From an uncultured Syntrophomonadaceae bacterium (GTDB lineage Bacteria > Bacillota > Dethiobacteria > DTU022): a stretch of 64,000 nucleotides of DNA. The notes beneath the pieces were generated by a model. It saw only the letters and a program-made list of their open reading frames with translations, was not told the origin of the DNA and ran no database searches. Shown piece by piece: positions 7,515-58,307 of this stretch. The translations under genes and the position numbers were made by a program. Location of the stretch: NCBI GenBank assembly GCA_964441025.1, contig CAYTXG010000006.1, forward strand, positions 32,829 through 96,828, read 5' to 3'. Within the stretch, counting starts at the first letter, position 1; each line of letters begins with the position of its first letter.

Positions 7515-7713
7515 ATGCAGCAGCGGGATTACGTTAGTGTTACAATCAGAGAAGTTAAGGATAATTTACTCCATGGAAAAAGGGTTTTTGCAAAGCGGCG
7601 ATCCCATAAGCTACAACAAACCGCGGCGTCTATCGGATACAGGGCAAATTATGAAATTGTACCGGGCATTTCGGCCTTCCCGATTGTATTAGTAGTGAAA
7701 GGAGGGCAAGCCG

Positions 7714-8211
7714 ATGGCGAACTCTTTGTTACGTACGGACAAAGAGATTGCAGAAATTTACGAGCGCCATAAAAAGACGGTGTACCGCGTCTGCTTTGCT
7801 TACATGAAAAATCAGCCTGATACCGAAGACGTCGTCCAGGATACATTTTATCAGTTGATCAGGAAGGGGCCTGTTTTCGGGAGCGAAGAGCACGAAAAGG
7901 CCTGGCTGATCAGAACGGCTACGAATTTGTGCAAAAACGGTCTGCGGTACTGGTGGCGCAGGCGCAGAAATCTGGATGATTGCTGGGCTCTGCAGGAGAA
8001 CGGCGATGTGGAGATCAGCGACACCCTCAGCGCAGTGATGGAGCTGCCCGAAAAATACAAGACGGTAGTCTATCTCTACTACTACGAGGGATACAACAGC
8101 GTGGAGATCTCCAGGATTCTCGGCAAACCCGGATCCACAATCCGCAACCATCTCCATGGAGCGCGCCGGGCCCTCCGGGACAAATTAGGTGGTGATTTCG
8201 ATGAAACATAG
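7714..8211 (+). CDS. ECF-family RNA polymerase sigma factor (sigma-70 regions 2 and 4)
   Basis: Region 2 is DTEDVVQDTFYQLIRKGPVF and region 4 is [47 protein letters not shown] lies 7 nt upstream of the ATG. Confidence 0.9.
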   Translation: MANSLLRTDKEIAEIYERHKKTVYRVCFAYMKNQPDTEDVVQDTFYQLIRKGPVFGSEEHEKAWLIRTATNLCKNGLRYWWRRRRNLDDCWALQENGDVEISDTLSAVMELPEKYKTVVYLYYYEGYNSVEISRILGKPGSTIRNHLHGARRALRDKLGGDFDET

Positions 8212-9013
8212 GCGAATCGCAGATGCATGGAACAAGATCGAGCCGGACAGCGACGCCGACAGGCGGATGCTGGCGGCAATCTTGAGCGACAACCGCTCTG
8301 AAAAAAGCAGAAGGGGGAGAGCAGGTGCGATGAACAGAAAAATTAACTGGAAAGTGCTGGCCCCTGTTGCCGCCTGCCTGGTGCTGGCCCTGGCCATCGC
8401 CGTACCGCTTTTTTCAGGCGGCGGGAACAGCTTTGACCTCAAGCGGTCAAGGGGCGTGAAAGTTGCCCATGTGCATAAGCTCCGGACACCGGCAGTTCCC
8501 AAAGCTGATCTCACGGTATTGACGGAAGAGGAGCTTTTCGGGGAAACATTTCGGGATTACGAGGTGGTCGCTTTCGAGGGAACCATCGTAGAGGTCCGCA
8601 ACATTGTCTGCGACTACAGCGGGGCCAAGGATTACCGCGCTATCGCCACCATCGAGGTGCAGGAGGTGCTGCGCGGAAACCTAACGACAGGAGCAACAGT
8701 CACGGTTCTCCTGCCCGGCCCCGTTGATGTAAAGGGGCTGTGGATTGAAGACACCGGCGTCTCCTCACATATGAGGGCGGGGACCAGGGGTATCTTTATG
8801 CCCATCAGATATGATGAAACATCAATCCGCGAAGAGAATGGCGTGAAACTCGCCCTGCTCGATCTGGCCGCATACGGACTTCTCGACGGCGAGCGCTGGG
8901 CCTTTCTCGAAACCGCAGAGGGGCTGACCTACTACACCTGGGCCTACCCGTCACTGGCGGGCGCAAAAAATCTGGAGGAGGTAAAAGAGATCATCCTTCC
9001 GAAACTCAAATAG
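8201..9013 (+). CDS. Anti-sigma factor (single-pass membrane protein) cognate to the ECF sigma
   Basis: Its start overlaps the sigma-gene stop. It has a short N-terminal cytoplasmic helix (MKHRRIADAWNKIEPD), a TM segment (WKVLAPVAACLVLALAIAV) and an extracytoplasmic domain of about 200 aa. Confidence 0.8.
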   Translation: MKHRRIADAWNKIEPDSDADRRMLAAILSDNRSEKSRRGRAGAMNRKINWKVLAPVAACLVLALAIAVPLFSGGGNSFDLKRSRGVKVAHVHKLRTPAVPKADLTVLTEEELFGETFRDYEVVAFEGTIVEVRNIVCDYSGAKDYRAIATIEVQEVLRGNLTTGATVTVLLPGPVDVKGLWIEDTGVSSHMRAGTRGIFMPIRYDETSIREENGVKLALLDLAAYGLLDGERWAFLETAEGLTYYTWAYPSLAGAKNLEEVKEIILPKLK

Positions 9014-9801: not shown

Positions 9802-11079
9802 TTAGGGCGCGGCAATCCTATCGCGGCCGCCGAAATAGGGGCGCAGCACTTCGGGCAAGATCACGCTGCCATCTTCCTGCTGGTTATTTTCCAGGATCGC
9901 CGCAACAGTCCGTCCGATAGCCACTCCCGAGCCGTTCAGGGTATGCACGAACTGCGCTTTCTGGCCCGGCGCGGGACGGTAGCGGATCCCGGCGCGGCGA
10001 GCCTGAAAATCAGTGAAATTGCTGCAGGAAGAGATTTCCCGGTAGGTCCCGGCCGAGGGTAACCATACCTCCAGATCATATTTTTTCGCCGCGGCAAAGC
10101 CGAGATCGCCGCTGCACATGAGCATGACCCGGTAGGGCAGCCCCAGGAGCTGCAGCACTTTTTCTGCGTTGCTGGTCAGGCTCTCCAGCTCTCCGGGCGA
10201 GCTTTCGGGCAGCACGAACTTGACGAGCTCGACCTTGTTGAACTGGTGCTGGCGGATGAGGCCGCGGGTGTCGCGGCCGTGGGCTCCCGCTTCGGAGCGA
10301 AAGCAGGCGCTGTAGGCCACGTAGCGCAGGGGCAGCAGCGCGGCGTCAATAATCTCATCCCGGTGCAGGTTGGTAACCGGCACCTCGGCGGTTGGAATAA
10401 GGTAATAATCGGCGCCTTCAACCTTGAAAGCATCTTCGGCGAACTTGGGCAGCTGTCCCGTACCGGTCATACTTCCTGAATTGACCAGAAAAGGGGGAAA
10501 GATCTCGCAGTAACCGTGCTCACCTGTATGCAGATCGAGCATGAAGTTGATCAGGGCCCGCTCCAGCCTGGCTCCATCGCCACGGTAAAGGGCAAAACGG
10601 CTGCCTGCAATTTTCCCTGCCCTGGGAAAGTCGAGGATGCCCAACGCTTCGCCGATATCCCAGTGCGGGCGCGGTGAAAAGGTAAATTCAGGCGGCCGGC
10701 TCCAGGCGCGCACCTCCTGGTTATCGGCTTCATCCCGGCCGGGAGGCACTTCGGGATCAGGGATGTTGGGCAGGCGCAGCAAGATTTGCTCCATCCCGGC
10801 GTCAATCCCGCGCAGTTCCTCGTCAAGCTCCTTGATTTTCCCCGACACCTGCCGCATCTCTTCTTTTTTCTGCTGCACTGCAGTACGGTCCCCTCCGGCC
10901 AGGCCGATCTCCTTTGAAACCCGGTTGCGCAGCCGCTTCATCCCATCGGCCTGCTGCAGCAGCCGGCGGCGCTCCTGATCCAGCTCCAGGAGCCTAACCA
11001 GGTCTGCCGGCTCATTTTTTTGAGCCATCGCCTCTTTAACTTTTTCGGGGTATTCCCGGACAAATTTTATATCGAGCAT
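9802..11079 (-). CDS. serS: Seryl-tRNA synthetase
   Basis: 425 aa. It has an N-terminal coiled-coil arm ([22 protein letters not shown]...) and the class II core motifs (...[25 protein letters not shown]..., [15 protein letters not shown]). Only 36 nt separate it from the upstream argS stop. Confidence 0.95.
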
Positions 11080-11115: not shown

Positions 11116-12825
11116 TTACATCTCTTCCGGGGCGGCGATGCCGAGCAGCCCCAGGCCGCTTTCGAGAACCCGGCGCACGGCGGCAATGAGAATCAGGCGC
11201 GCCTGCCGCAGATGGGGATCGTCAACAAGAACGGGACACTCGTGGTAAAAACGGTTGAAATCACGGGCTACATCGATGAGATAGCGTGCCAGAATGGAGG
11301 GGCGGTAGCCCTCGGCGGAGGCCGTAATTTTCCCCGGATATGCAGCCAGGGTTTTCACCAGGGCCTTCTCCTCCGCCTGCCCCAGAAAGCCGGCGGCCTC
11401 CCCGGACCAGTCGGGAGAGGCGGTGCCGGCGCGGCGGAGGATGCTGCAGATGCGGGCATGGGCGTACTGGATATAGGCCGCTGTCTCGCCGGAGAAATCG
11501 AGCACCTTCTCCCAGTCAAATTCTACATCCTTGATCCGGTCATTGCTCAGGTCGCCAAAGCGGACCGCCCCAAGCCCGACGGCTTTCGCTGCGCTTTCCT
11601 TATCGGCCAGATCGGGGTTCTTCTCCTCAATAATCTTACGGGCCAGGCTAATGGAGCGCTGAAGCACTTCATCCAAAAGGATCATTTTCCCTTCGCGGGT
11701 GGACATCCGCCCCTCCTTGAAGCGGATCAGGCCAAAGGGGATATGAATACAGTCGCGGGCCCAGGGGAAACCAAGGAGCTCCAGAATCTTGACAAGCTGC
11801 TGGAAATGCAGTTTCTGCTCCGCCCCCACCACATAGAGCGCCTTTACAAAATGAAAGGTGCGCTGCCGGTACTGCGCCGCCGCCAGATCCCTGGTCAGAT
11901 AGAGAGTAGCCCCATCTTTCTTGCGCAGCATGGCCGGCGGAAGGCCGTATTTTTCCAGATCCACGATGAGGGCGCCTTCGCTTTCAGTGGCCACCCCTTT
12001 TTCTTGAACCAGCCGGATGGCGTCGTCGAGCATATCGTTGTAATGGCTCTCGCCGTGATAGTAATCGAATTTTATGCCCAGAAGGTTGTAAATCTGATCG
12101 TAATTTTCCAGGCTGAGACGGCGGAAAAGTTCCCAGAAGTCAACAGCCTCCTTCTCGCCGTCTTCAAGTCGCTTGAACCAATGCCGGGCCTCCTCTTCAA
12201 GCGAGACATCTGAATCGGCCTCCTGGTGAAAGCGTACATAGAGGTGATAGAGATAGTTGACGGGATCTTTCTGCAGTTTTTCACCGTCGCCCCAGCGTTT
12301 GAAGGCTACAATCATCTTCCCAAACTGTGTGCCCCAGTCTCCCAGATGGTTGACGCCCAGGCAGCGATATCCCTGGGCCTCAAGAATCAAGGACAGGGCA
12401 TGGCCAATGACGGTTGAGCGTATATGCCCGATTCCAAAGGGCTTGCATATATTGGGCGAGGAATAGTCTATAACGATGACTCCTTCTCCGCCGCGATCGC
12501 TTTTGCCGTACCCCGGCCCTTCATCATAGATCCGTTTTAGAAGATCACGGCTGAAAACAGGATAGTCAAAGTGGAAATTCAGGTAAGGCCCCCTGGAGGA
12601 AGCCCTTTCCCAGAATACTCCCCGTTTGCCGGAAAGGGACTCGCCCAGTTCTGCGGCAATTGCCGCCGGCGATTTCTTTTGACGGGCAGCCAGGCTGAAA
12701 CAGGGAAAAGCCAGATCGCCGAGTTCAGGGTCAGGCGGCTCTTCCAGGAGCTCCGCCACCCGGGTTTCTTCAAGCATGACCAGCGGCGCCAGAATCTGGC
12801 CAATCTCTTTTTTATAGTGATCCAT
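11116..12825 (-). CDS. argS: Arginyl-tRNA synthetase
   Basis: 569 aa. It has the class I HIGH motif (PFGIGHIRSTVIGHALS), a KMSK-like region (GRMSTREGK) and the C-terminal DALR anticodon-binding domain. Confidence 0.95.
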   Translation of the reverse strand: MDHYKKEIGQILAPLVMLEETRVAELLEEPPDPELGDLAFPCFSLAARQKKSPAAIAAELGESLSGKRGVFWERASSRGPYLNFHFDYPVFSRDLLKRIYDEGPGYGKSDRGGEGVIVIDYSSPNICKPFGIGHIRSTVIGHALSLILEAQGYRCLGVNHLGDWGTQFGKMIVAFKRWGDGEKLQKDPVNYLYHLYVRFHQEADSDVSLEEEARHWFKRLEDGEKEAVDFWELFRRLSLENYDQIYNLLGIKFDYYHGESHYNDMLDDAIRLVQEKGVATESEGALIVDLEKYGLPPAMLRKKDGATLYLTRDLAAAQYRQRTFHFVKALYVVGAEQKLHFQQLVKILELLGFPWARDCIHIPFGLIRFKEGRMSTREGKMILLDEVLQRSISLARKIIEEKNPDLADKESAAKAVGLGAVRFGDLSNDRIKDVEFDWEKVLDFSGETAAYIQYAHARICSILRRAGTASPDWSGEAAGFLGQAEEKALVKTLAAYPGKITASAEGYRPSILARYLIDVARDFNRFYHECPVLVDDPHLRQARLILIAAVRRVLESGLGLLGIAAPEEM

Positions 12826-12959: not shown

Positions 12960-15011
12960 CTAAAACTCGGGGTTGATGTGGTAGGGCCTGTAAATACTGC
13001 GGTCCAGGGAGGGATAGTCCTGCGGCGGCGACCATTTCTCACCTTCCACATATATTTCCATGTGAAGGCTGTCGCTGTTTCCAGCAGCCGTCAGGAAAAG
13101 GGCATCCAGAACCATCGCCGCATGCAGCTGCTCTTCAACTCCCCCGTCTTCGGGGAATAGCATGCGGAAGGAGGAATTTAAGTCGACCCTGAGTACATTG
13201 TCCGCCTCGCTAACTTCAATAAGATTGAGATCGCCCGGCACAAAATAGAATGACCGGCACTGTTTCACAACAGCCATGAGCAGGCCGTCGAGATCGCGCT
13301 GCTCGATTTCAAGTTCGGAAGCCTCTCTGGGAATAATGTAATAGCGCTCACTGATCCGCACAGGGATGAAAAGAGGATCTTTCCAGTGATGCGGCTGTAT
13401 GGGTTGCTCTAAAACCACGCCGTTGCCGAATGTTTCAAGGGGCTCTTTGCCCGCTGTAATGTATATTTCTTTGACTTCAGCAAAGGATCCGATTGTATAG
13501 CTAAGCGAATTTATTACACTTAAAGGCTGGTAAGCACCGGTCATCCCGGCCATTTCAGGCGAAAGCGCCAGAAATAGCTGCCCGCTTTCTTTTTTAAAGG
13601 TAACCTCCACTGCGGCATCCTTGGGAATGGTCCGGTTCAGACCGCTTTCGCGGGAGGGGCCGCGGATCAACTCCTCAATTGCAGTCCTGAGCGGGTTATC
13701 GGTCTGGCTGATCAACCTGGAAACGGGAATATAATAATCATCGCTGTTGAAGAAAAGGGTAACCGCCAAACGGCCTTTCTCCAAATCGGTAACGGCAGGG
13801 CTGTATAACGGAGCCGGCGCCTGGCTCTGCGCATTGTCCCGGAACAGCTCCGCATCCAGATCAATGACGTCAATAAAGCCGTCCTCTCCGCCGATGACAA
13901 TGTAACGGCGGCTGCTGGAGACGAGCAGCCGCTCTACACGCATTCCCAGCTCCAGATTTACCGGGAGCGCTTCACCTGTTTCATCAAGGAAAACCATCTG
14001 GCTGAAATCTTCTTTATAGTGGCGCCAGGAACTGGTGATAATCCTGTTGCCGTCTGCCGCGAAAGACAGCAGCGCCCCTTCGGCTATTTTTTTCCTCCAG
14101 AGATCTTTCCCCTCGGCGCTGAAATAGTAAAGGTTTTCATTCTGCCTGTCTTCGCTTCCGTAAAGAAGAAGGTTGCTGTTCTGGGGATTGAACATCACCG
14201 TCGTTGTGTTAAAGCCGGCGGGCAACGTCCGCTCCCAGAGCACCTCCCCCTGGGATCTGCAGACGATAAGCGAAGTGCTGTCTAGCAGGGCCAGCCTGCT
14301 TTCAGTGCGAGAGATGGCCTCCAGGGTAACCCCCTCCCTCACCCACAAGTTCTCTCCCGTTAACGCAGCAGCAGCGGTGGCCGCTGTACCCTCCTGCTCG
14401 TAGCTGTAAAATACAAGACCCCGGTTCAGCTGCTCTCCGGCCAGGTATATCTTCTGCAACGGGCCGGTGGCTATGCTCCATTGAAGGGATCCATTATGAC
14501 CATCATAAAGCTCCAGGTGATGTATGTCCTGTTCCGGGGCGCCCCTGGCAACAAGAACCCATTTACCGTTGGCGGACAGCGTCACAAGGTAAACGGATTC
14601 TTCCAGCTCCTGCTGCCACCAGACCTGCTGATCGGCAGACATGAAAAACAGATCCCCGCCTTCAGTGCCCACCGCCAGGTAGTTCCCGCAGGCGGAAATC
14701 TTTGTCTGCAGCGGGCTGGTCGGAAAACTCTTTTCCCAACGCAGTTTCCGTTCGCGGTCCAGCAGACTGACTTTTTTTGACTCGCTGCCAAATATGATTC
14801 CTGTAACATTGCGATCAACGCTCAGATCAAGAAGGTTGGCGCCGGTAAACCAGAGTTCAAAGAGATCCTCCTTATCTGTACCGCCCAGCGGTTCGATGGG
14901 GTCTCCATGCTTCATCAATGTCAGGCCGCGAGCGCTGTACAGAATCATCCCGGCGATCACAAAGATAGCAGCCAGGCCGATGAGGAAATAGTATGGTTCA
15001 ATCCGTTTCAT
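12960..15011 (-). CDS. LpqB-like membrane-anchored protein with a PQQ/BamB-like beta-propeller plus two GerMN domains
   Basis: 683 aa. The N-terminal TM segment is FLIGLAAIFVIAGMILY. The central part has about 6 to 7 repeats with the pattern L(W/Y)xxxL...G (LQWSIATG, ENLWVREG, GEVLWERTL, GKDLWRKKI), typical of PQQ-like propeller blades. The C-terminal half has two GerMN-like modules (LFFNSDDYYIPVSRL...AIEELIRGP...LSPEMAG and a second copy). It lies immediately downstream of the HK/RR pair, as LpqB does after MtrAB. Confidence 0.7.
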   Translation of the reverse strand: MKRIEPYYFLIGLAAIFVIAGMILYSARGLTLMKHGDPIEPLGGTDKEDLFELWFTGANLLDLSVDRNVTGIIFGSESKKVSLLDRERKLRWEKSFPTSPLQTKISACGNYLAVGTEGGDLFFMSADQQVWWQQELEESVYLVTLSANGKWVLVARGAPEQDIHHLELYDGHNGSLQWSIATGPLQKIYLAGEQLNRGLVFYSYEQEGTAATAAAALTGENLWVREGVTLEAISRTESRLALLDSTSLIVCRSQGEVLWERTLPAGFNTTTVMFNPQNSNLLLYGSEDRQNENLYYFSAEGKDLWRKKIAEGALLSFAADGNRIITSSWRHYKEDFSQMVFLDETGEALPVNLELGMRVERLLVSSSRRYIVIGGEDGFIDVIDLDAELFRDNAQSQAPAPLYSPAVTDLEKGRLAVTLFFNSDDYYIPVSRLISQTDNPLRTAIEELIRGPSRESGLNRTIPKDAAVEVTFKKESGQLFLALSPEMAGMTGAYQPLSVINSLSYTIGSFAEVKEIYITAGKEPLETFGNGVVLEQPIQPHHWKDPLFIPVRISERYYIIPREASELEIEQRDLDGLLMAVVKQCRSFYFVPGDLNLIEVSEADNVLRVDLNSSFRMLFPEDGGVEEQLHAAMVLDALFLTAAGNSDSLHMEIYVEGEKWSPPQDYPSLDRSIYRPYHINPEF

Positions 15012-15098
15012 AAGATAACACCTTTACAGGGATCCAACGAATTAATTAATTCTATCATTAATTCAGAACCATGACTATAAAGGCTGCTAAAATATACA

Positions 15099-16529
15099 TT
15101 AATTATCGTTAACATCCTCCTTCAGCAGCAGCGGCAGGGTGAAATAAAAAGCACTCCCTTCGCCCTCCTTGCTACCGGCCCACACCCTGCCTCCATGCGC
15201 CTCCACTGTTTCCCGGACAATGGCCAGGCCCAGCCCCGTGCCTCCCATTTCCCGGGAACGGGCCCGGTCAACCCGGAAAAATCGCTCAAAAATGAAGGGG
15301 AGATCCTTTTCCGGTATGCCGCATCCGGTATCCTCAACTTTTATTTCCACCGCTTCCCCCTCTCTCCAGAGCGACAATTTAACCCATCCCCCCGGTGGAG
15401 TGTACTTCAGGGCATTATCCAGGAGGTTGTGCAGCACCTGGCATAACTGGAGTTTGGAACCGGCGATGGGGTAGCTCCCCGTCGGCACATCGCTAAGCAG
15501 CCTCACATTTTGCCGGTCAAAACGGGGTGCAGCCTGCCTTATCAGATCACGAACAAGCTCATCAAAAGCAAGCCCTTCATGGTGGGCTTCCCCGCCTTCA
15601 AGGGTGGTCAGCTCCAACAGATCCCGGACCAGGGCAACTAGCCGCTCCATTTCGCGGTCAAGATCATCCAGGAACTCCCGCTGCTGCTCCGGCTCCATCT
15701 CATAATCCTTGAGCGATCTGGTCAGCAGGCTGAGCGAAGCCAGGGGGGTGCGCAGTTCATGCGCCACATTGGCAACAAATTTACGCAAATTTTGAGTATA
15801 ATAATCAAGCTTCTCCGCCATCAGGTTAAACCTGTCGGCAAGCCGACCGATCTCATCCTCCGACTTCACCGGAATACGCTGCTCCAGTTTTCCCTCGGCC
15901 ATCTTTCCTGCCGCTTCTGTAAGTATCTCCAGGGGGCCGGTAAAGCGTTGAGCCATGAAGACCGCGCCGATTCCAGTCATTACAGCTGCAAGCAGGGTGG
16001 CCAGTATGAGAAAGCCCCGGATATCAGCCATGATCTTATCGATCTCCTGCAGGGAGGCGGAAAGAAAAACAGCCCCCACCGGCTTCTCTTCTTCATCCAG
16101 CACGGGCAAAGCCACCTGCATAACCTTCTGTTTCGACAGCTCGCTGTATTGAATGCTAATACCGGTTTCACCGGCAAAGGCGGCAGCTACCTCCTCACGG
16201 TCAAGGAGCTGCCCCAGCAGCCCGCCCACCCGGACAGAGTCTCCGATAACAATCCCCTTTTTATTGACAAAAATAACTCGAGCCTTCATCTGGCGGCTGA
16301 AATTTTCCGCCAGCCAGCTCAGGCGAACGGGATCAGCCTCCTCCTGGAGCTGCCCGGCTACGAACTGCCCTGCCAGGGCTCCCGAGCGGATCAGGTTGTC
16401 CTGCAGGGCATTAATATAATAGCGTCCCATCACCTGATCCAGAAAAAAAGCGACGATGAGCATAACTGCCAAAATCGCCACCAAAAAAGTAACCGTGAGG
16501 CGGGAGCGGATGCTTTTGAATTTAAACAT
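15099..16529 (-). CDS. Sensor histidine kinase (WalK/MtrB-like: 2 TM, periplasmic loop, HAMP, HisKA, HATPase)
   Basis: It has TM1 LTVTFLVAILAVMLIVAFFL, a loop of about 150 aa, TM2 FLILATLLAAVMTGIGAVFMA, a HAMP domain, the H-box VANVAHELRTPLASL, an N-box LLDNALKYT and G-boxes DTGCGIP and GGTGLGLAIV. I placed the start at MFKFK, which overlaps the RR stop (ATGA). The track ORF starts at 16565. Confidence 0.9.
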   Translation of the reverse strand: MFKFKSIRSRLTVTFLVAILAVMLIVAFFLDQVMGRYYINALQDNLIRSGALAGQFVAGQLQEEADPVRLSWLAENFSRQMKARVIFVNKKGIVIGDSVRVGGLLGQLLDREEVAAAFAGETGISIQYSELSKQKVMQVALPVLDEEEKPVGAVFLSASLQEIDKIMADIRGFLILATLLAAVMTGIGAVFMAQRFTGPLEILTEAAGKMAEGKLEQRIPVKSEDEIGRLADRFNLMAEKLDYYTQNLRKFVANVAHELRTPLASLSLLTRSLKDYEMEPEQQREFLDDLDREMERLVALVRDLLELTTLEGGEAHHEGLAFDELVRDLIRQAAPRFDRQNVRLLSDVPTGSYPIAGSKLQLCQVLHNLLDNALKYTPPGGWVKLSLWREGEAVEIKVEDTGCGIPEKDLPFIFERFFRVDRARSREMGGTGLGLAIVRETVEAHGGRVWAGSKEGEGSAFYFTLPLLLKEDVNDN

Positions 16530-17224
16530 CAAAGTTCCTCTCTGAATTTGTAACCTGTTCCCCACACCGTCAGGATCAACCGGGGGTTGCTTGGATCCTC
16601 CTCGATTTTTTCGCGCAGATGCCGTATATGAACATCTACAGTTCGGGCATCTCCATAATAATTGTAACCCCAGATCTGCTCCAGGAGCTGTTCCCTTGAG
16701 TAAACCCGGCCTGCATTGGAGGCCAGAAAACTCAAGAGGGCAAATTCTTTTGCCGTCAGGTCTACATCCCTCTCGCCTTTGATTACCCGGTGCTGCAGGA
16801 GGTCAATCTGCAGTTCTCCGATTTGAATCCTTTTGCGCAGCCCCTCATCCCTGGCGGCGCTGCGCCTTAAAATGGCCTTCATCCGGGCGACAAGTTCCCG
16901 GGGGTTAAAGGGCTTGGTCATGTAATCGTCAGCGCCCAGCTCCAGGCCGAGGACCTTGTCAATGTCCTCACCCTTTGCGGTCAGCATGATGATGGGGATC
17001 TCTTCTTTTTTGCGAATTTCCCGGCAAACCTCGAAACCGTCCAGGCCCGGCAGCATCAGATCGAGAATAATAATATCCGGGGCCGCTTCAAAGGCCTTCT
17101 CCAGCGCTTCTTCACCGTTGTAGGCCTCTTCAACAAGGAAGCCTTCCTTTTCAAGGTTGAATTTCAATGCCTTAACCAGGGTTTTTTCGTCATCCACTAA
17201 AAGAACTTTCTTTTGGGCGGACAT
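16529..17224 (-). CDS. OmpR-family response regulator (WalR/MtrA-like)
   Basis: The receiver domain is KKVLLVDDE...IIILDLMLPGLDGFEV...[41 protein letters not shown]. It has a winged-helix C-terminus. It is about 65% identical to the second RR at 58308-59000. Confidence 0.92.
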   Translation of the reverse strand: MSAQKKVLLVDDEKTLVKALKFNLEKEGFLVEEAYNGEEALEKAFEAAPDIIILDLMLPGLDGFEVCREIRKKEEIPIIMLTAKGEDIDKVLGLELGADDYMTKPFNPRELVARMKAILRRSAARDEGLRKRIQIGELQIDLLQHRVIKGERDVDLTAKEFALLSFLASNAGRVYSREQLLEQIWGYNYYGDARTVDVHIRHLREKIEEDPSNPRLILTVWGTGYKFREEL

Positions 17225-17230
17225 ACACTT

Positions 17231-17869
17231 CTAACCTCCGCTACTGATCTGCCGATAACAACGCGCTATTTCTTTAAAATCTTCCCAAACCGGCCTCTTT
17301 TTGCTGCTGTCGCGGAGCAGCGCCGCGGGATGGAAGGTGGGCATGCAGCGGCGCCCCTCAATAGTGTACCAGCGCCCCCGCAGGCGGGTCAGTGATTCGC
17401 TGCCGCCGATCAGGTTCCGCGTGGCCAGGGCGCCCAGGCAAACTATGAGCGTGGGATTAATCAGGCGGATCTGCTCTTTAAGGTGAAGCAAACACTGCGC
17501 CGCTTCGCCGGTTTCGGGGAGGCGGTTGCCGGGAGGACGGCACTTGACCACATTGGTGATATAAAGCTCTTCCCGTTTCAGCCCCGCCGCCTCCAGGATG
17601 CGGTCAAGGAGCCTGCCCGCCGTTCCCACAAAGGGCTTGCCGAGGCGATCTTCCTCCGCGCCGGGGCCTTCACCCACCAGCATGAGCCCGGCTCTTGGGC
17701 TGCCCTCACCGAATACAACCTGGCGGCAGCCGGATCTCAGGACGCAAAGGTTGCAAGAGCGGCACCTTTTTTCCAGCCCGGCCAGTTCAAGCTCTATATC
17801 CTTCTCCCCTGAGCCGCCTTCAACCCTGTCCAGATAATCGAAGAGCGTTTGCTGGTTGTTCTCCTTCAA
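17231..17869 (-). CDS. Uracil-DNA glycosylase, family 4 (4Fe-4S type)
   Basis: It has a Cys cluster (CRSCNLC), GEGPGAEEDRLGKPFVG (the family 4 active-site motif GEAPG), and HPAALLR near the C-terminus. It sits 6 nt upstream of the RR gene. Confidence 0.85.
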   Translation of the reverse strand: MKENNQQTLFDYLDRVEGGSGEKDIELELAGLEKRCRSCNLCVLRSGCRQVVFGEGSPRAGLMLVGEGPGAEEDRLGKPFVGTAGRLLDRILEAAGLKREELYITNVVKCRPPGNRLPETGEAAQCLLHLKEQIRLINPTLIVCLGALATRNLIGGSESLTRLRGRWYTIEGRRCMPTFHPAALLRDSSKKRPVWEDFKEIARCYRQISSGG

Positions 17870-17924: not shown

Positions 17925-19073
17925 CTAATTTGGGATCATCTCTTCGGCGGCGCCAACAGCTGATCCTCTTTTCAGCGGGTAACCGAGCGATTGCAAAACC
18001 ATCTCCAGGGCGGCGATACCGGCCAGCACATCAAAATAGCCCACCGCTCCCAGGTGGCCTACACGAAACATCTTCCCCTCCAGCGCACCCTGGCCGCCGG
18101 CAATCTCCACCTCGAAACGATCACGCATCTCCGCCTGAAGCCTATCCTCCTTTACCCCGGGAGGGTTCATGACTGCCGTCACCGTGGGTGAGGCAAAGCG
18201 CTCCTCCTTAACCAGCAACTCCAATCCCAGCGCCCGCACTGCAGCCCGCACTGCCGAAGCCATGCACCGGTGCCTGATATAACAGTTTTCCCGCCCTTCG
18301 GAAAAATAAATCTGCAGCGCCTCCCGTAGGGCGACAAACTGGGGCAAAGCGGGCGTGAAGGGAGTTTGCCCTTTTTGCAGCAGTTTTTCAGCCGTCTGAA
18401 GATTGAAATAGTATTTCGGCATCGCGGAGCTTGCCGCCGCCCGCCAGGCCCTCTCCCCGGCGCTGATGAAAGAAATCCCCGGAGGGAGCTGAAGGGCTTT
18501 CTGGGAGGCGGTAAAACAGACATCAATGCCCAGCCGGTCTACAGGGATGTCAACGGCGCCCATGGAACTGACAGTGTCAACCATGAGCAGGGCAGGATGA
18601 TCGCCTCGCATACGGCTGATCGCTTCCAGATCATTGATCATTCCGGTGGAGGATTCGTTGTGGACAACTGTAATCGCGCGAACAGTTCTGTTTTTGTCTT
18701 TCCGCAGCTTCGCTTCAAAACTGTCGTAGTCCAGGGGCTGCCCCCAGGGGGTTTCCATACGTTCAACGCTCCCCCCGTACACGGCGGCAATCTTTGCAAA
18801 GCGGTCCCCAAAAGATCCGTTGACAAGCGATACAATCCTGTCGCCCGGAGACAAAAAATTTACAACAGCCGCTTCCATGGCCCCTGTTCCCGAAGCGGTC
18901 AGCATAAAAAGGCGGGCTTCGGTCTGGAAAATTTCCTTCAAAGAGGCGGTCAGTTCTGCGATAAGTTCTGCAAAGCGGGGTCCGCGGTGGTTGAACATCT
19001 CCGCGGACATGACCTGCGCCACCCTGTGGGGAACGGGTGTCGGGCCGGGAATCAGCAGATAGTTACTGGGCAT
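17925..19073 (-). CDS. Class V aminotransferase (alanine-glyoxylate / serine-pyruvate / archaeal-type phosphoserine aminotransferase-like)
   Basis: LLIPGPTPVPHRVAQ...TGMINDL...TASQKALQLPPG carries the PLP-Lys motif of the AGXT family. I chose the start at MPSNYLLIPGP (GAGGAG upstream). The track ORF extends to 19271. Confidence 0.8.
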   Translation of the reverse strand: MPSNYLLIPGPTPVPHRVAQVMSAEMFNHRGPRFAELIAELTASLKEIFQTEARLFMLTASGTGAMEAAVVNFLSPGDRIVSLVNGSFGDRFAKIAAVYGGSVERMETPWGQPLDYDSFEAKLRKDKNRTVRAITVVHNESSTGMINDLEAISRMRGDHPALLMVDTVSSMGAVDIPVDRLGIDVCFTASQKALQLPPGISFISAGERAWRAAASSAMPKYYFNLQTAEKLLQKGQTPFTPALPQFVALREALQIYFSEGRENCYIRHRCMASAVRAAVRALGLELLVKEERFASPTVTAVMNPPGVKEDRLQAEMRDRFEVEIAGGQGALEGKMFRVGHLGAVGYFDVLAGIAALEMVLQSLGYPLKRGSAVGAAEEMIPN

Positions 19074-19110
19074 TCTCGATTGCAACTCCTCTTCTTTTAA
19101 TCTTTCTTTT

Positions 19111-20256
19111 CTACTCCGGCGGGGCGGTACGCAGCCCCCGGCGGCGGGCAAATCTGTCCTCCGCCAGTTCCAGCAGCCGGCTGACCAGATCGCGGAAGCC
19201 AATCCCGCTAACCTCCCACAGCTTGGGATACATGCTGATGATGGTGAATCCGGGCATAGTGTTGATCTCATTGATCATAATCGACTCCGCCTCCGGATTG
19301 ACGAAAAAATCGACGCGGGCCAGCCCGCTGGCCTCAACGGAGGTAAAGGCGCGGCAGGCCAGCTCCTGGATCTTTGCTTCAAGCCCCGGAGGCAGATCCG
19401 CTGGATAGATCAGCTCTGAGCGATCATCGAGGTACTTGGCTTTATAATCGTAAAATTCGTTGCAGGGGATAATTTCTCCCGCCCGTGAAGCCCGGGGCTC
19501 CAGATCACCCAGAACGCTGCATTCTATCTCCCTGCCCTTGAGTTCCCCCTCAACAATAACCTTGTCGTCATAACGCAGGGCTTCCTCAATGGCAACGGCC
19601 AGACGGGCCGCATCTGAAACCCTGGTTATACCCACACTGGAGCCGAGATTGGCTGGCTTGACAAAACAGGGCAGTTTCAGCTCCCGGCAGATCCGCCCCA
19701 CCAGAAGGGAGGCTTTGCAGCGCCATTCCCAACGGGTGAAATAGAGATAAGGGCCCACCGGTAAACCGTGCTTCAGAAAGAGCATTTTCATCACCGTTTT
19801 ATCCATGGCCACCGCTGACGAGAGCACCCCGCACCCCACGTAGGGAATTCCGGAAAGTTCAAGCAAACCCTGTATGGTTCCATCCTCGCCATAGGGACCG
19901 TGCAAAACGGGAAAGACCAGATCAAGGTGCTGAAATCCCCACGAATCAGGCCAACCCTTATTTTCAACCAGCAGGCCCGGCCGGCGGGGATCAGTCAACA
20001 TCACCGCCCTCTGAAGGCCCTGCAGATCTCCCCGTTCCCGGAGCAGGCTCCAGGCCTCGCTGCCCGTGAACCAGGTTCCCTCCCTGCTAATGCCGATGGG
20101 AATTATTCTGTAACGCTCCCCGTCAATCGCCTCCATAATCGAGCGCGCTGATTTTAACGAGACAACATGCTCCCCGGAACTGCCCCCGAAGATCACGGCA
20201 ACTGTTTTTCGATTCAAGGCTTCCTGTCCTCCCAGGTTAGATTTGCGGCTGAACAT
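19111..20256 (-). CDS. ddl: D-alanine--D-alanine ligase
   Basis: KTVAVIFGGSSGEHVVSLKSARSI... is the N-terminal signature. ...VFPVLHGPYGEDGTIQGLLELSGIPYVG... and the ATP-grasp C-terminus (...INEINTMPGFT) match Ddl. The start may lie slightly downstream of the track start. Confidence 0.88.
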   Translation of the reverse strand: MFSRKSNLGGQEALNRKTVAVIFGGSSGEHVVSLKSARSIMEAIDGERYRIIPIGISREGTWFTGSEAWSLLRERGDLQGLQRAVMLTDPRRPGLLVENKGWPDSWGFQHLDLVFPVLHGPYGEDGTIQGLLELSGIPYVGCGVLSSAVAMDKTVMKMLFLKHGLPVGPYLYFTRWEWRCKASLLVGRICRELKLPCFVKPANLGSSVGITRVSDAARLAVAIEEALRYDDKVIVEGELKGREIECSVLGDLEPRASRAGEIIPCNEFYDYKAKYLDDRSELIYPADLPPGLEAKIQELACRAFTSVEASGLARVDFFVNPEAESIMINEINTMPGFTIISMYPKLWEVSGIGFRDLVSRLLELAEDRFARRRGLRTAPPE

Positions 20257-20449: not shown

Positions 20450-21712
20450 GTGCTGCCTGCATCAGTTATTCTCGGAGCAAACTTTTATACTCCTCTCGGA
20501 GCCATCCGTACCCTGGGACGCCGCGGCGTCAGGGTCTATGCTTTTGACTATCATTTTCCCTCTGCTTACGCCCTTTCCTCAAAATATGTCTTTAAAAAAG
20601 TGCTCTGCCCCGATGTAAACAAAGATGAAAAGGGGCTGGCCGGCTTCCTGCTTGACTTTGGAAAGCAGTTCGCAGATCGGCCGGTGCTGATGGCGGGCCA
20701 TGACAATTACGCCCTCCTGATCTCACGCTATGCAGAGGAGCTGTCCAGATATTACCGGATTCCCCAAAACCCTCCGGGACTGCTCGAGGAGATCATCAAC
20801 AAGAAAGGGCTGTACCGTATAGCCCAAAAACTCGGTCTGCGAATGCCCCTTTCTTTTTTCGTGGAGAGCAATACTGACCTCTCAGGGGTGGCGGAGCAGA
20901 TGCACTTCCCCTGCATGATCAAGCCGGCGCTGTCCCACGAGTTTGTGCGCCTTTTCCGGAGCAAGTGCCTTATCGCCGGCGACAGGGACTCTTTGAGCAG
21001 CGCCCTGGCCCGGGCGCGGGCCGCCGGCCTTGAGATAATGGTTCAGGAGATCATCCCCGGTTTTGACGACTGCATGTATGTTTTTGACACCTATATCAAT
21101 ACTGAGGGCCGGGCCACGCACACCCTTACCGCGCAGAAACTGCGCCAGTTCCCCATTAATTTTGGCTCCTCCACCCTGACCCATCACTGCTGCGATGCCG
21201 AGATTACCGCCCTGGGTCTCGAGTACATGCGGCTTATCGGCTACCGCGGCTACGGTGAAATCGAATTCAAGCGGCATCCCGTCACCGGGGATCTCTACAT
21301 GATCGAAATAAATGCCCGCTTAAGCAGCCTGAATGCTCTTTTTGACAAATGCGGCGTAGAGTTCGCCTATATCCATTACCGGGATCTTATCGGTAGACCG
21401 CTGCCCGATCACCACCCCGAAGAAGAGAAACCCTGGGCCTTCTGGCATGCCTATGAAGATATTTTCAGCACCAGGGCTTACCTGAAAAGCCGCCAGCTCC
21501 GCTGCAAAGAGATCCTCCGCCCCTGGCTGAGCCACCACAAAGCCCATGCCCTCTGGGCCGCCGATGATCCAAAGCCTTTATTTTCCTTCGGCAGGGTGCT
21601 CTTGATGAAGCTGCTCAAAAAGGCAGGCGGGCTGTTCAGGCGGATTTTCCCCTCTCTGGGGGCAGCCGCCGGGGAAAAAAAGGAGCCCTCCCTATCAAAA
21701 AGGGAGGCTTAA
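20450..21712 (+). CDS. ATP-grasp family carboxylate-amine ligase (D-aspartate ligase / PylC-like)
   Basis: 420 aa. The pre-ATP-grasp and ATP-grasp motifs are IGYRGYGEIEFKRHPVTGDLYMIEINAR and EIMVQEIIPG. Confidence 0.75.
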   Translation: MLPASVILGANFYTPLGAIRTLGRRGVRVYAFDYHFPSAYALSSKYVFKKVLCPDVNKDEKGLAGFLLDFGKQFADRPVLMAGHDNYALLISRYAEELSRYYRIPQNPPGLLEEIINKKGLYRIAQKLGLRMPLSFFVESNTDLSGVAEQMHFPCMIKPALSHEFVRLFRSKCLIAGDRDSLSSALARARAAGLEIMVQEIIPGFDDCMYVFDTYINTEGRATHTLTAQKLRQFPINFGSSTLTHHCCDAEITALGLEYMRLIGYRGYGEIEFKRHPVTGDLYMIEINARLSSLNALFDKCGVEFAYIHYRDLIGRPLPDHHPEEEKPWAFWHAYEDIFSTRAYLKSRQLRCKEILRPWLSHHKAHALWAADDPKPLFSFGRVLLMKLLKKAGGLFRRIFPSLGAAAGEKKEPSLSKREA

Positions 21713-22780
21713 GGCGGCGCCCCTACCGGCTTTAATCATCCGCATTGCCGAATCATAGAATAAGGGAAAGAGGCGCCGCCAGATCCAGTAGTATGCCCGG
21801 GAGAGCGCCAGATCCTGCTCGCCAATAAAGGCATGGAATTCACCGCCAAAGCTCTTTTTAAAGTGGTAAATACCGTACAGAGGGTGTGCTTCGCCTACCT
21901 CCCCGGGAACACCGTAAAAATCAAACCAGCGTGCTCCCCTGCTTTTGGCCCACCTGATCCGTTCCCAGATGAGGGCATGATAGGCATAGAGGTTCCGATA
22001 GCGATCGCTCTGGCTGCCGTAAACAGCCCAGGCCTTTCCGCCAAAGGCAAATGTAATCCCGGCGACTATAACCTCGCCCCCGAAGCGGCCCAGCGTAAGC
22101 CGGATTACCCCTTCAGGTCCCAGGATCGCGAATAGTCTGCGGTAGTAATCAGGCTTCCGGCCGACAAAGCCCCCCCGCTTCGCTGTTTTTTCCATCAGGC
22201 GTATGAACTCAGGCAGCCCTTCTTCGCCGGGGGAGAAAAACTCCAGCCCCCTGGCGGGACCGTACCTGATTTTATAGCGGATTTTTTTGGGAAAACGGTC
22301 CATGATCTCCTCAGGATCGCCGCTCAGATCGAGACGGAAGGTATAGCGCGGCTGTAACCCCCCGAAGTCATGCTCCCCCGGGGCGGGGCGGAACCCGATC
22401 CGGGAAAGCGCTGCAGCAGGCGCCGTCTGCTTCTCAGTAAGGCAGGGGTCAATTTTGATCAGAACTGCCCGGTGCTCTTCGGCCAAGTTGCGTATGCCGC
22501 TGAAGAGCTCCCTCAATACAGTTGCGTTGTTCCAATCCAGGGGCACCGGTCCGCGCGGCAGGTAGAAAATTGTTCGTTGCCCCAGGGGTATTTTACGCTT
22601 CAGGATCGAAGCCGCCGCCGCAATGCGTCCTTCCTCCTCCAGCACTGCGCGCAAAGGCTGCCAGGCTGTTTTCTTCAGTTCCCCCCACATATATGACTGA
22701 AATAAATGTCCCCCGGCAGCGGAGCGGATAAAATCATCAAAGCGCCCCGCCTCTGCCGCCGTGATCAATCTAAATTGCAC
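21695..22780 (-). CDS. FemABX-family (aminoacyl-tRNA dependent) peptidyltransferase-like protein
   Basis: 361 aa. It has a duplicated GNAT-like Fem fold (...HLFQSYMWGELK...YLPRGPV... N-terminal; ...RNLYAYHALIWERIRWAKSRGARWFDFYGV...YHFKKSFGGEF C-terminal), characteristic of FemX/FemA/MurM. Confidence 0.7.
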   Translation of the reverse strand: MQFRLITAAEAGRFDDFIRSAAGGHLFQSYMWGELKKTAWQPLRAVLEEEGRIAAAASILKRKIPLGQRTIFYLPRGPVPLDWNNATVLRELFSGIRNLAEEHRAVLIKIDPCLTEKQTAPAAALSRIGFRPAPGEHDFGGLQPRYTFRLDLSGDPEEIMDRFPKKIRYKIRYGPARGLEFFSPGEEGLPEFIRLMEKTAKRGGFVGRKPDYYRRLFAILGPEGVIRLTLGRFGGEVIVAGITFAFGGKAWAVYGSQSDRYRNLYAYHALIWERIRWAKSRGARWFDFYGVPGEVGEAHPLYGIYHFKKSFGGEFHAFIGEQDLALSRAYYWIWRRLFPLFYDSAMRMIKAGRGAALSLPF

Positions 22781-36173: not shown

Positions 36174-37583
36174 TCAGATGTTATTGACAAGCTCATTTTT
36201 AAGCAGGTCCAACTTGATTTTTTCTTCGTCGTCATCAGCGGTGAGCTTATTGATCTTCCTGATGGCATGTAAAACTGTGGTATGATCCCGCCCTCCAAAT
36301 TCCTCGCCAATCTTTGGCAGTGAAAGATCCGTCAGTTCGCGGGTCAGGTACATGGCTATTTGACGGGCAAATGCTATATTGCGAGTTCTTCTTTTGCTGC
36401 GCAGTTCCCCCGGGGTCAGATAAAATTGTTCAGCCACAAAGGTGATTATTTTATCCACAGGGATCTCTTTTTTTGCAGTAAAAAGTATATTTTTCAGGGC
36501 TTCATCAGTCAGGTCAAGGGTGATTTTTGAATTTGACAGCGAAGCATAGGCTACAATCCTGATCAAGGCTCCCTCAAGCTCGCGGATATTATTTTCAACT
36601 TTCGAGGCGATATGGTGCAGCACATCATCAGAAATATCAAATTCTTCCAGCAGAGATTTTTTCTTTAGAATTGCTATTCTCGTTTCCAGATCAGGGGGCT
36701 GAATATCGGTAATCAGACCCCATTCAAAACGGGAACGAAGGCGATCCTCCAGGGTGGGAATTTCTTTTGGAGGCCTGTCGCTGGAAACAACGATCTGGCG
36801 GTTTAGGTTGTGGAGAGTGTTAAAGGTATGGAAAAACTCTTCCTGCGTTTGTTCCTTTCTGGCTAAAAATTGGATATCGTCAATTAAAAGTACATCTATA
36901 TTGCGGTAATGATTTCTAAATTCGACGGTTTTATTATCCCGAATGGCATTAATAAAGTCATTGGTGAATTTTTCTGAGGAACAGTAAAGGATGTTTTTTA
37001 AATTGTGATGATTGGCTATGTACTGGCCGATGGCATGCAACAGATGGGTTTTACCCAGGCCTACACCGCCATATATAAAAAAAGGGTTGTAAGCCTTAGC
37101 GGGGCTCTCAGCAACGGCAAGGGATGCGGCATGGGAAAGGCGGTTGCAGGGGCCGACCACAAAACTGGCGAATGTGTAGCGCGGGTTGAATAAAGATTCC
37201 TTGCCGGCGTAAGTATTTATATTTCCGCCCATGGCTGCAGGCACTTCAAAAGGGTAATCGCCATCTCCGTCGAAATCCATGAAATCGGCAACAACAACAA
37301 AATCAACTTCATAATTACCGGAGGTAATGCTGTTCAATTTTTTGATAATAGCTTTTTTATAGCGGTCCTGAATCCATTCCCTGGCAAAATCGTTGGGTAC
37401 TGCTATTACCAGGCGCTGTTCTTTCAAAGAAAGAGGACGGGTAGAAGCAAACCATGTTTCAAAGCTGGGTTTGCTAAGCTCCCGGCTGATATCGGTTAGA
37501 ATCAAAGACCAGAGAGTTGAAAGGTCGCCCGACAAAAAATAACCTCCCTGCTGATCATGAGAAAAAGCGCCGAGGTTATACAC
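36174..37583 (-). CDS. dnaA: Chromosomal replication initiator protein DnaA
   Basis: 469 aa. Domain I is ...[25 protein letters not shown]+ Walker A is [15 protein letters not shown], Walker B is VLLIDDIQF, and sensor and domain IV are ...HTTVLHA. The exact start is uncertain. Confidence 0.95.
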
Positions 37584-56548: not shown

Positions 56549-56779
56549 AGCACTGCATAAAACATGGATAAGGTGGGGAATATAGGTCGCCTGGGCGTTG
56601 CGCGTCTTTTTGTACATACTAATTCCGGAATAAGGCGGGATTTTTTGACTTTGGGGCAGGAACTTTTAAGTTTATGGCGAAATAATTAACTCATCTTAAT
56701 AATTGTTAAGGATACAGGCAGTCGACTTAACAAGTTTTCCGCTAAACAGTATCCCGATTTGCCCCAAAGGAGGTTTTTT

Positions 56780-58174: not shown

Positions 58175-58191
58175 ATTTCCTGAATCCGACC

Positions 58192-58228
58192 TGGGAAGGG
58201 GCTGCTCCAGAGCGGCCCCTTTTTTTGA
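58192..58228 (+). terminator. Rho-independent terminator after the M23 peptidase gene
   Basis: AAGGGGC-tgctccagagc-GGCCCCTT followed by TTTTTTT. Confidence 0.65.
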
Positions 58229-58307
58229 ACGGAGTAAACTTGTTCCAGCAGGGATTTGGTGATGGGGAAACGAAATTGTGATCTAAGCCTGAATGGGGAG
58301 AGAGAAC

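Follow-up and report, generated by a model that had tools for sequence, protein, structure and literature searches.

A WalRK-like two-component system with a β-propeller/GerMN partner protein beside canonical WalRK-YycHI near oriC of an uncultured Syntrophomonadaceae bacterium

WalRK of the Firmicutes and MtrAB of the Actinobacteria are essential regulators of cell-wall homeostasis and drug targets, and the similarity between the two systems has long been noted in the literature. The control of their kinases by accessory proteins (YycH/YycI, LpqB and WalA) is poorly understood; YycH and YycI are the accessories that control WalK. To our knowledge, the binding of a ligand by a GerMN domain has never been demonstrated. 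In genetic terms, LpqB behaves as a negative regulator of MtrB (PMC9159947). Its architecture is a GERMN domain followed by GMAD1, for which 5-6 blades are predicted, and the binding of peptidoglycan by GerMN is likewise a prediction (PMC2732212). In C. difficile, one operon encodes WalA (a β-propeller lipoprotein), WalR and a WalK devoid of PAS (PMC9210968).

The locus described here lies in a stretch of 64,000 nucleotides (the window), in which all open reading frames described for positions 12960-17224 are present. Three genes on the minus strand form its core: RR1 (16529..17224), a response regulator of 231 aa that belongs to the OmpR family and its WalR/MtrA group and has the Pfam domains Response_reg and Trans_reg_C; the sensor kinase HK1 (15099..16529), ~476 aa if its start is placed at the ATG overlapping the RR1 stop, with the longest ORF starting at 16565; and X (12960..15011), a 683-aa extracytoplasmic accessory protein. 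By direct reading of the sequence, the RR1 stop and the HK1 ATG overlap as TGATG, and a spacer of 87 nt separates HK1 from X. Upstream, co-directional and outside the conserved unit, Pfam identifies a UDG (17231-17869), a class V aminotransferase (17925-19073) and ddl (19111-20256). An earlier note on this DNA had put the gaps from the triad to ddl at 6 to 40 nt; this is correct for UDG-RR1 (6 nt) and for ddl-aminotransferase (37 nt, with the aminotransferase start set at M67, 19073), but the aminotransferase-UDG gap is 55 nt. Cell-wall genes are frequent around the triad, namely ddl, a FemAB-family gene and an ATP-grasp gene.

On the plus strand of the same window, the canonical system is complete: WalR (RR2, 58293-59000), a WalK with PAS (HK2, ORF 58816-60798, the real start probably lying later), YycH (60716-62113) and YycI (62101-62979). 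All of their domains (58293-62979) score above the Pfam thresholds, and NCBIfam assigns 320 bits to WalR as YycF and 554 bits to WalK. HK2 carries PAS at residues 310-421 in addition to Cache_WalK, and RR2 pairs with B. subtilis WalR (62% identity, 67-73% bootstrap). YycH and YycI follow HK2 only; the gene that follows HK1 is X. The origin is marked by dnaA at 36174-37583, succeeded by dnaN, recF, gyrB and gyrA, and by a change in the sign of the GC skew at ~36-38 kb, which places oriC within ~25 kb of both RR1-HK1-X and WalRK-YycHI.

HK1 is laid out as a TM segment, a Cache_WalK sensor, a second TM segment, HAMP, HisKA and HATPase. The Cache_WalK domain (PF23846, residues 87-170) passes the gathering score of 27 with 32.3 bits and is also recorded in HK1 orthologues. 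Pfam finds no cytoplasmic PAS in HK1, as HAMP (203-253) leads directly into HisKA (260-325). The domain order in X is TM anchor, propeller, GerMN, GerMN. The anchor (residues 6-29, 14925..14996, minus strand like all parts of X) is a helix in the AF2 model and, on comparison of N-termini, has no lipobox Cys. It is followed by a disordered linker (low pLDDT at 28-57) with a conserved G-x-P-V/I-E-P motif, of which P41 is invariant among the family N-termini compared. Fold comparison identifies residues 60-384 (13860..14834) as an eight-bladed β-propeller of the PQQ_2/BamB/DUF5711 type. GerMN domain 1 (residues 414-540, 13392..13772) is assigned by Pfam Germane and by a phmmer match to GerM (6gzb), and the divergent GerMN domain 2 (residues 546-672, 12996..13376) by profile-profile comparison. 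The Pfam matches themselves cover residues 420-525 for Germane (5e-17) and 80-224 for PQQ_2/BamB (4e-11). The second GerMN stays below the Pfam threshold (20.8 bits, gathering score 23) and is confirmed by its hhalign match to GerMN-1 (89%, E 2e-6). Across the family, GerMN domain 1 is the best conserved part of X, with a mean pairwise identity of 40% vs 29% for the propeller. Pfam, hhalign and AF2 together bear out the proposal that a 683-aa membrane-anchored protein with a propeller and two GerMN domains takes the place of YycH/YycI.

In the window X and its close relatives, the N-terminal TM helix is uncleaved and lacks a lipobox, while many distant members (25-31% identity) carry a lipobox L-x-G-C. 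According to the topology drawn from Pfam, AF2 and the N-termini, the Cache sensor of HK1 and every folded part of X are extracytoplasmic and membrane-tethered. X neither reaches the BamB equivalog TIGR03300 (cut-off 285) nor stands in an outer-membrane BAM context.

The arrangement RR-HK-X is a conserved unit whatever its flanks. X lies directly downstream of the kinase in 20/20 loci with the HK side on the contig, and in these 20 the regulator precedes the kinase wherever the contig extends far enough, across X identities from 88% down to ~25%. Two propeller-only variants without GerMN hold the same slot after RR-HK, which leaves the propeller as the part that constantly accompanies the two-component genes. 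In L025 and L026 the flanks are entirely different: DUF2225 comes before the unit, and a hydrolase and a LuxR-type RR come after it; UDG, argS and serS are missing, the RR-HK-propeller genes are still together, and the RR falls inside the RR1 clade of the neighbour-joining tree. In most loci argS-serS also follows X without exception, so that synteny discriminates only through L025/L026, a single lineage. The idea that UDG, the aminotransferase and ddl are conserved co-transcribed partners of the triad does not hold: some relatives have them and others lack them or carry pdxST or other aminotransferases in their place, with RR-HK-X constant throughout, and X has a -10-like element of its own.

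This element (15049..15077, minus strand) was found in the HK1-X spacer by a promoter scan and contains the extended -10 TGATAGAAT, which is kept as TGaTAnAAT in an alignment of the spacers of eight loci, where it precedes the X start codon by ~35-40 nt. As a match to the consensus it is promoter-like, a putative promoter. The terminator and promoter scans were at chance level overall, and just this spacer element, conserved in relatives, was retained. Together with an HK-X spacer of 64-536 nt in relatives, the element implies that X could be separately expressed. A pattern scan for the box TGTWAH-N5-TGTWAH, through which WalR controls autolysin genes and which may not be that of RR1, gave none near or upstream of the triad.

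An exhaustive search of representative proteins, clustered at 50% identity, gives ~18 clusters of full-length X along with relatives that consist of the propeller or of GerMNx2 alone, and no obvious LpqB among the best 150 matches. Further profile searches return essentially the same Dethiobacteria-like set, in which neither LpqB nor WalA nor any cultured or named organism occurs. In a mirror-tree comparison from which argS/serS distances were removed, the distances of X correlate with those of the cytoplasmic part of HK (partial r 0.37, p 5e-4) and of the HK sensor (partial r 0.24, p 0.03); RR correlates to a similar degree (0.37) with the cytoplasmic part of HK. The X-HK co-evolution signal is weak, and part of it may come from non-linear saturation of fast-evolving proteins.

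A less probable alternative is that X is a GerM-type sporulation or germination morphogenetic protein with an added propeller, that its two-component neighbour is unrelated, and that the block from ddl to argS-serS is syntenic within one lineage and origin-proximal. Some relatives are indeed annotated 'spore germination protein GerM', argS-serS is as constant downstream as RR-HK is upstream in most loci, and the conserved promoter-like element belongs to X itself; a stand-alone GerMNx2 relative, which has no two-component linkage, adjoins a GerA germinant-receptor gene. Against these points stand the propeller-only variants, which lack GerMN and still follow RR-HK, the intact triad under full flank replacement in L025/L026, the residual X-HK co-variation, and B. 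subtilis GerM itself, which has no propeller and is not known to be linked to a two-component system.

We prefer, at a probability of about 0.6, the reading that RR1, HK1 and X constitute a three-component envelope-sensing system alongside canonical WalRK-YycHI, specific to a lineage of uncultured Bacillota labelled Dethiobacteria or 'Syntrophomonadaceae'. The sequences show the domain content and topology of its members, the likeness of RR1 and HK1 to WalR and WalK, and the conservation of the triad whatever its flanks. HK1 is a WalK-type kinase that retains the extracytoplasmic Cache_WalK and HAMP without the cytoplasmic PAS. X sits on the outside of the cell membrane, where the window genome anchors it with a TM helix and distant relatives with a lipid. 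How the system might work we infer, from contact between HK1 and X and the ligand to the direction of control and the genes under RR1. The GerM-like tandem GerMN of X may report on or bind a cell-wall feature, and the eight-bladed propeller may serve as a platform for protein interactions, touching the sensor region of HK1 and thereby setting its balance of kinase and phosphatase activity. As with YycH/YycI and LpqB, this influence of X on HK1 is probably restraining. RR1~P would then control an envelope gene set distinct from the WalR regulon.

Understood as such a system, the X family represents a third solution to the control of these kinases, a BamB-like propeller and a GerM-like module attached to a PAS-less WalK paralogue, and it is found in a genome that retains the classical WalRK-YycHI. 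Propellers and GerMN domains also appear to have been recruited more than once as partners of WalK-type kinases. The natural variants (TM or lipid anchor, with or without GerMN) are useful to dissect which part contacts the kinase. The immediate impact is moderate, because the finding is a genomic one and is confined to uncultured lineages of Dethiobacteria-like type. A broader scenario, which we regard as doubtful, is that the triad survives from an ancient Gram-positive wall sensor composed of a WalRK/MtrAB-type pair and a GerMN/propeller protein with a lipid anchor; through domain loss and rearrangement it would have given rise to LpqB of the Actinobacteria and WalA of the Clostridia, and the ancestral accessory would have been kept here beside Bacillus-type YycHI.

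The affinity of RR1 and HK1 is with WalRK. NCBIfam ranks YycF first for RR1 (297 bits) and MtrA second (266 bits), and for HK1 it ranks WalK best (326 bits), with the next match at 235 and MtrB at 205. None of the equivalog cut-offs (YycF 340, WalK 725, MtrA 300, MtrB 450) is reached by either protein; those for YycF and WalK are strict for this phylum, since the canonical pair of the window also falls below them (320, 554). RR1 is 56% identical to B. subtilis WalR and 46% to MtrA. The earlier note described close paralogy with the WalR/WalK of the window; the two regulators are 55% identical, not ~65%, and the identity of HK1 to the window WalK is 38% over the kinase core and 27% over the sensor. 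A neighbour-joining tree of regulators with few references, full-length B. subtilis PhoP and ResD not among them, recovers the RR1 clade as monophyletic (97-98% bootstrap). In the same tree RR1 does not group with MtrA, and its sister relation to WalR is weakly supported (35-41%). HK1 was placed relative to MtrB and WalK by NCBIfam and PDB scores. Sequence comparison thus supports RR1 and HK1 as a second two-component system that is WalRK-like. It had also been suggested that the triad is a sign of an evolutionary link between WalRK and MtrAB; with the best scores to WalR/WalK and RR1 outside the MtrA group, the triad gives no specific evidence of their common descent.

There is a slim chance that the pair belongs to another OmpR/EnvZ-type subfamily (PhoPR-, ResDE- or YclJK-like) and resembles WalRK generically, given that the RR1 receiver domain scores B. 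subtilis PhoP (154.4 bits) as highly as WalR (154.7 bits), that both proteins lie under the YycF/WalK cut-offs and that the tree has the reference set described above. The YycF and WalK models nevertheless come out on top, the kinase with a clear margin (326 vs 235 bits); the HK1 sensor passes the Cache_WalK gathering score, the solved kinase cores nearest to HK1 are all VicK/WalK (4i5s, 4u7n, 5c93, 3sl2), the gene content of the window shows no pst or res genes near RR1-HK1, and HK1 lacks the PAS domain that PhoR and ResE carry. A PhoPR/ResDE-type assignment is unlikely.

Compared with the known systems, X shares with GerM of B. subtilis (6gzb) the tandem GerMN domains at a sequence identity of only ~16%. 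GerM, a propeller-less lipoprotein, measures ~366 aa, whereas X is a fusion with a ~330-residue propeller and is TM-anchored; GerM functions in sporulation (assembly of the SpoIIIA-SpoIIQ complex) with no known two-component linkage, whereas X is two-component-linked. With WalRK-YycHI of Bacilli, the locus has in common the best family matches of RR1/HK1, the Cache_WalK sensor of HK1 and membrane-anchored extracytoplasmic accessory genes directly 3' of the kinase. It differs in the missing cytoplasmic PAS, in an accessory that is unrelated to YycH and YycI, in the recognition-helix region (RTVDVHIRHLREK in RR1 vs RTVDVT(I/V)RRLREK in WalR) and in that the true orthologues sit elsewhere in the same window. 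The walA-walR-walK operon of C. difficile is likewise from a Firmicute host, its WalK-type kinase has Cache and no PAS, and a membrane-tethered β-propeller protein of the operon replaces YycH/YycI, a likeness that is architectural only (PMC9210968). However, walA is located upstream and X downstream, no GerMN is reported for WalA, and the Wal system there is the sole and essential one, whereas here it is the second (PMC9210968).

The resemblance to MtrAB-LpqB, from which the earlier note took its name for the triad, extends to the gene order RR-HK-accessory on one strand, to a presumed role in envelope homeostasis, to a kinase that, like MtrB, joins an extracytoplasmic sensor to HAMP without cytoplasmic PAS (PMC9210968), and to a membrane-tethered, extracytoplasmic accessory combining GerMN with a β-propeller (PMC2732212), whose distant members are lipoproteins as LpqB is. 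Of the domain inventory of LpqB that was ascribed to X, the GerMN (Germane, PF10646) and a propeller fold (PQQ_2/BamB) are found. Up to an E of 10, neither the window X nor its propeller taken alone matches the LpqB propeller family PF10647 (GMAD1), which is also absent among the 25 families listed for 17 X members, 27 lower-ranked families (at most one member each) lying outside these; sequence and fold searches with X found no LpqB structure in the PDB. The order is reversed, propeller-GerMN-GerMN vs GerMN-GMAD1, with two GerMN domains instead of one; the propeller is eight-bladed and PQQ/BamB/DUF5711-like as opposed to the 5-6 blades predicted for GMAD1 (PMC2732212); the window X is TM-anchored and not lipidated; and the present organism also owns WalRK-YycHI. 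In favour of true homology between the triad and MtrAB-LpqB, whether by lateral transfer or by descent from one Gram-positive three-component system, MtrA also ranks higher for RR1 (second, 266 bits) than for RR2 (fourth, 243 bits). Such homology is most improbable in view of these differences and of the closer affinity of RR1 and HK1 to WalRK. In conclusion, a WalRK-YycHI system and the RR1-HK1-X triad do both lie near oriC, with RR1 and HK1 scoring best against WalR and WalK, and the label 'MtrAB-LpqB-like' holds as an analogy in design, not as a copy.

The response regulator RR1 (16529-17224), the sensor kinase HK1 (ORF 15099-16565) and the 683-residue protein X (12960-15011) are encoded in this order on the minus strand and constitute a genuine, conserved, WalRK-paralogous three-component module. 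As read from the sequence, the HK1 ATG overlaps the RR1 stop codon (TGATG), and an 87-nt spacer separates HK1 from X. Upstream on the same strand lie ddl (19111-20256), a class V aminotransferase gene (ORF 17925-19271, starting probably at the ATG at 19073, because homologues align only from residue 67) and a gene of the uracil-DNA glycosylase (UDG) superfamily (17231-17869), with successive junctions of 37, 55 and, before RR1, 6 nt. X is followed by argS (11116-12825), serS (9802-11079) and three tRNA genes. The canonical WalR and WalK (Cache_WalK, HAMP, PAS, HisKA, HATPase by Pfam), with YycH and YycI, occupy 58293-62979. Between this set and the triad come dnaA, dnaN, recF, gyrB and gyrA, with a switch in the sign of the GC skew at about 36-38 kb, so that oriC is about 21-25 kb away from either system and the two belong to opposite replichores. 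Both the ORF layout and the proximity to oriC described in the earlier note are thus confirmed.

An ATP-grasp gene (20450-21712, plus) and a FemAB-family gene (21695-22780, minus) flank ddl and recur beside it in several related loci (L003-L005, L024); together they look like a small peptidoglycan stem-peptide/bridge cluster adjoining the triad. Further away, an ORF of 274 residues (8189-9013) overlaps the end of an ECF-type sigma factor gene (7714-8211, plus); no Pfam family matches its product, for which a membrane segment is predicted and which is possibly an anti-sigma factor. A borderline Rfam match to the cspA thermoregulator (1813-2151, minus; 79.8 bits, gathering score 78), unexpected for a Firmicute, lies near an SRP RNA (1194-1459) and tRNAs.

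Judging from family scores, domains and phylogeny, RR1 and HK1 constitute a paralogous, WalRK-like lineage and are not MtrAB orthologues. The best NCBIfam match of RR1 is YycF (297; MtrA 266, RpaB 256, PhoB 255) and that of HK1 is WalK (326; PnpS 235, MtrB 205), all under the equivalog cut-offs, as are the scores of the canonical pair (YycF 320, WalK 554). The sensor domain of HK1 scores above the Pfam gathering cut-off for Cache_WalK, and among solved structures the HK1 kinase core comes closest to those of S. mutans VicK, L. plantarum WalK and B. subtilis YycG. In a neighbour-joining tree with references from PDB alignments and E. coli K-12, RR1 orthologues form one clade (97-98% bootstrap), and the canonical regulator RR2 groups with WalR of B. 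subtilis (62% identity, 67-73% bootstrap). The RR1 clade branches beside this WalR pair with a support of just 35-41%; identity of RR1 is 52-58% with WalR and 44-49% with MtrA or RegX3. The WalRK paralogy proposed earlier therefore stands, while the identity of the two regulators, put at about 65% by eye, measures 55%. Between the two kinases, identity is 38% for the catalytic core and 27% for the sensor/HAMP region.

Protein X consists of a transmembrane anchor, an eight-bladed PQQ/BamB-like propeller and a GerM-like tandem of GerMN domains. Pfam matches PQQ_2/BamB (4e-11), other propeller families and DUF5711 more weakly, and Germane at residues 420-525 (5e-17). In an AF2 model built from 24 homologues (pLDDT 81), an N-terminal helix (residues 6-29) and a disordered linker precede about 32 β-strands (60-384) and two α/β domains (414-540 and 546-672). 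The second GerMN domain scores 20.8 bits, below the Pfam gathering score of 23, but is supported by its match to the first in profile-profile alignment (hhalign 89%, E 2e-6). The propeller and paired C-terminal GerMN domains of the earlier note are borne out. Close relatives share the transmembrane anchor; many distant members carry a lipobox instead. A G-x-P-V/I-E-P motif just past the anchor (residues 36-41) is common to all members, full-length and propeller-only. Alignments A2 and A3 of the family also show SSWR-x-Y-x-ED in a late propeller blade (326-335) in both forms. Both motifs are candidate kinase contact sites.

Gene context was compared across 23 loci encoding X-family members of 88% to about 25% identity, propeller-only forms included. 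X lies directly downstream of a PAS-less Cache_WalK/HAMP kinase in all 20 loci with the kinase side on the contig, and an OmpR-type regulator precedes the kinase wherever the contig reaches far enough. The genes upstream vary: UDG is missing in L006, L020 and L021, the aminotransferase in L008-L010, and L012, L013 and L020 have a pdxST insertion; these genes therefore fall outside the RR-HK-X unit. Because argS-serS follows X in most loci, synteny alone might reflect mere inheritance. The decisive case is provided by L025/L026, where a propeller-only lipoprotein (P0102) and its own regulator-kinase pair stand among unrelated genes (DUF2225 upstream; a hydrolase, a LuxR-type regulator and a transglutaminase downstream), with the regulator inside the RR1 clade (98% bootstrap). 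The propeller-only forms L017 and L025 fall at separate places in the RR1 tree, amid forms that carry GerMN, which suggests two losses of GerMN, with the propeller as the constant partner of the two-component system. A stand-alone GerMNx2 relative (P0108) lacks such linkage and lies near a GerA gene. The X propeller evolves much faster (mean distance 1.39) than RR1 (0.34), HK1 (0.7-0.8) or argS (0.49). After argS/serS distances are regressed out, X and HK still co-vary (partial r 0.37 and 0.24), at a level close to that of the kinase cytoplasmic part with the regulator (0.37), which lends weak support to their partnership.

The HK1-X spacer contains an extended -10-like element, TGaTAnAAT (15049-15077, minus), and some 35-40 nt separate it from the start codon of X. 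It recurs in the equivalent spacers of L002-L007 and L024 and is conserved over eight loci; the -35 region is not conserved. The element suggests an internal promoter, which may give X a transcript of its own as well. The case for the co-transcription proposed earlier is tempered accordingly, and the alternative that X is a GerM-like sporulation protein stays alive. In two distant relatives the spacer reaches 536 nt (L016, 3490-4027) and 194 nt (L017, 3458-3653), against the usual 64-106 nt, which hints at separate transcription of X in those lineages.

The conserved RR1-HK1-X module is restricted to uncultured Dethiobacteria-like Bacillota. A word-indexed search yields 78 full-length relatives of about 680 residues, all from metagenomes or MAGs and labelled Dethiobacteria, Bacillota or 'GerMN domain-containing protein'. 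A scan of species-representative genomes yields 11 loci in Bacillota and 'uncultured Syntrophomonadaceae' MAGs. An exhaustive representative search yields about 18 full-length clusters at 50% identity, with propeller-only (about 390 residues) and GerMNx2-only (about 360 residues) proteins.

Its topology and the analogues YycH/YycI and LpqB make an action of X on HK1 from the extracytoplasmic side the most likely mechanism. The propeller would serve as the kinase-contacting platform, and the GerM-like module as a wall-facing element, possibly binding peptidoglycan, a GerMN activity that is itself a prediction (PMC2732212). The recognition-helix region of RR1, RTVDVHIRHLREK, differs from that of WalR, so a separate regulon is expected.

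At the canonical locus, a G5/Peptidase_M23 protein (471 residues, 56759-58174, plus) directly upstream of walR is a plausible WalR-controlled peptidoglycan hydrolase. Scanning the window for WalR-box-like sites (TGTWAH-N5-TGTWAH, up to one mismatch) returns 10 matches where 2.4 are expected, a count that no shuffle out of 100 attained; none is near the triad. They lie at 57262-62949 and at 7528, 32237, 36818, 38903 and 51369, each with one mismatch; five fall inside the M23 peptidase gene or walK, yycH and yycI, and most of those compared with the ORF list are in coding sequence. The longest walK (58816-60798) and yycH (60716-62113) ORFs extend 185 and 83 nt into the genes before them; since family matches begin at about residue 61 of WalK and residue 28 of YycH, translation probably starts further downstream in both.

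The defining architecture of LpqB is a GERMN-GMAD1 fusion; the protein is usually lipidated and has its gene beside mtrAB, and its propeller has 5-6 predicted blades (PMC2732212). Genetically it is a negative regulator of MtrB (PMC9159947). X shares with LpqB GerMN, a propeller in general, membrane tethering and gene order. In its specifics X does not match the LpqB family: PF10647, the LpqB propeller, is absent from X even at E up to 10, the propeller is eight-bladed and of PQQ/BamB/DUF5711 type, the domain order is reversed, GerMN is doubled and X of this genome has a transmembrane anchor. The resemblance is thus one of design, by analogy or at most through shuffled shared GerMN modules. Of the MtrAB-LpqB-like triad in the earlier note, the three-component module stands, as an analogue of that system and not a member of it, and the triad, taken alone, does not tie the evolution of WalRK to that of MtrAB. 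No description of a propeller-GerMN protein or an RR-HK-X triad was found within the library searched. The likeness of WalRK to MtrAB(-LpqB) has been pointed out in earlier papers (PMC2732212, PMC3262814, PMC9210968). Like HK1, both MtrB and C. difficile WalK lack a cytoplasmic PAS domain, and the C. difficile walA-walR-walK locus provides a Firmicute precedent for a PAS-less WalK with a propeller lipoprotein (PMC9210968).
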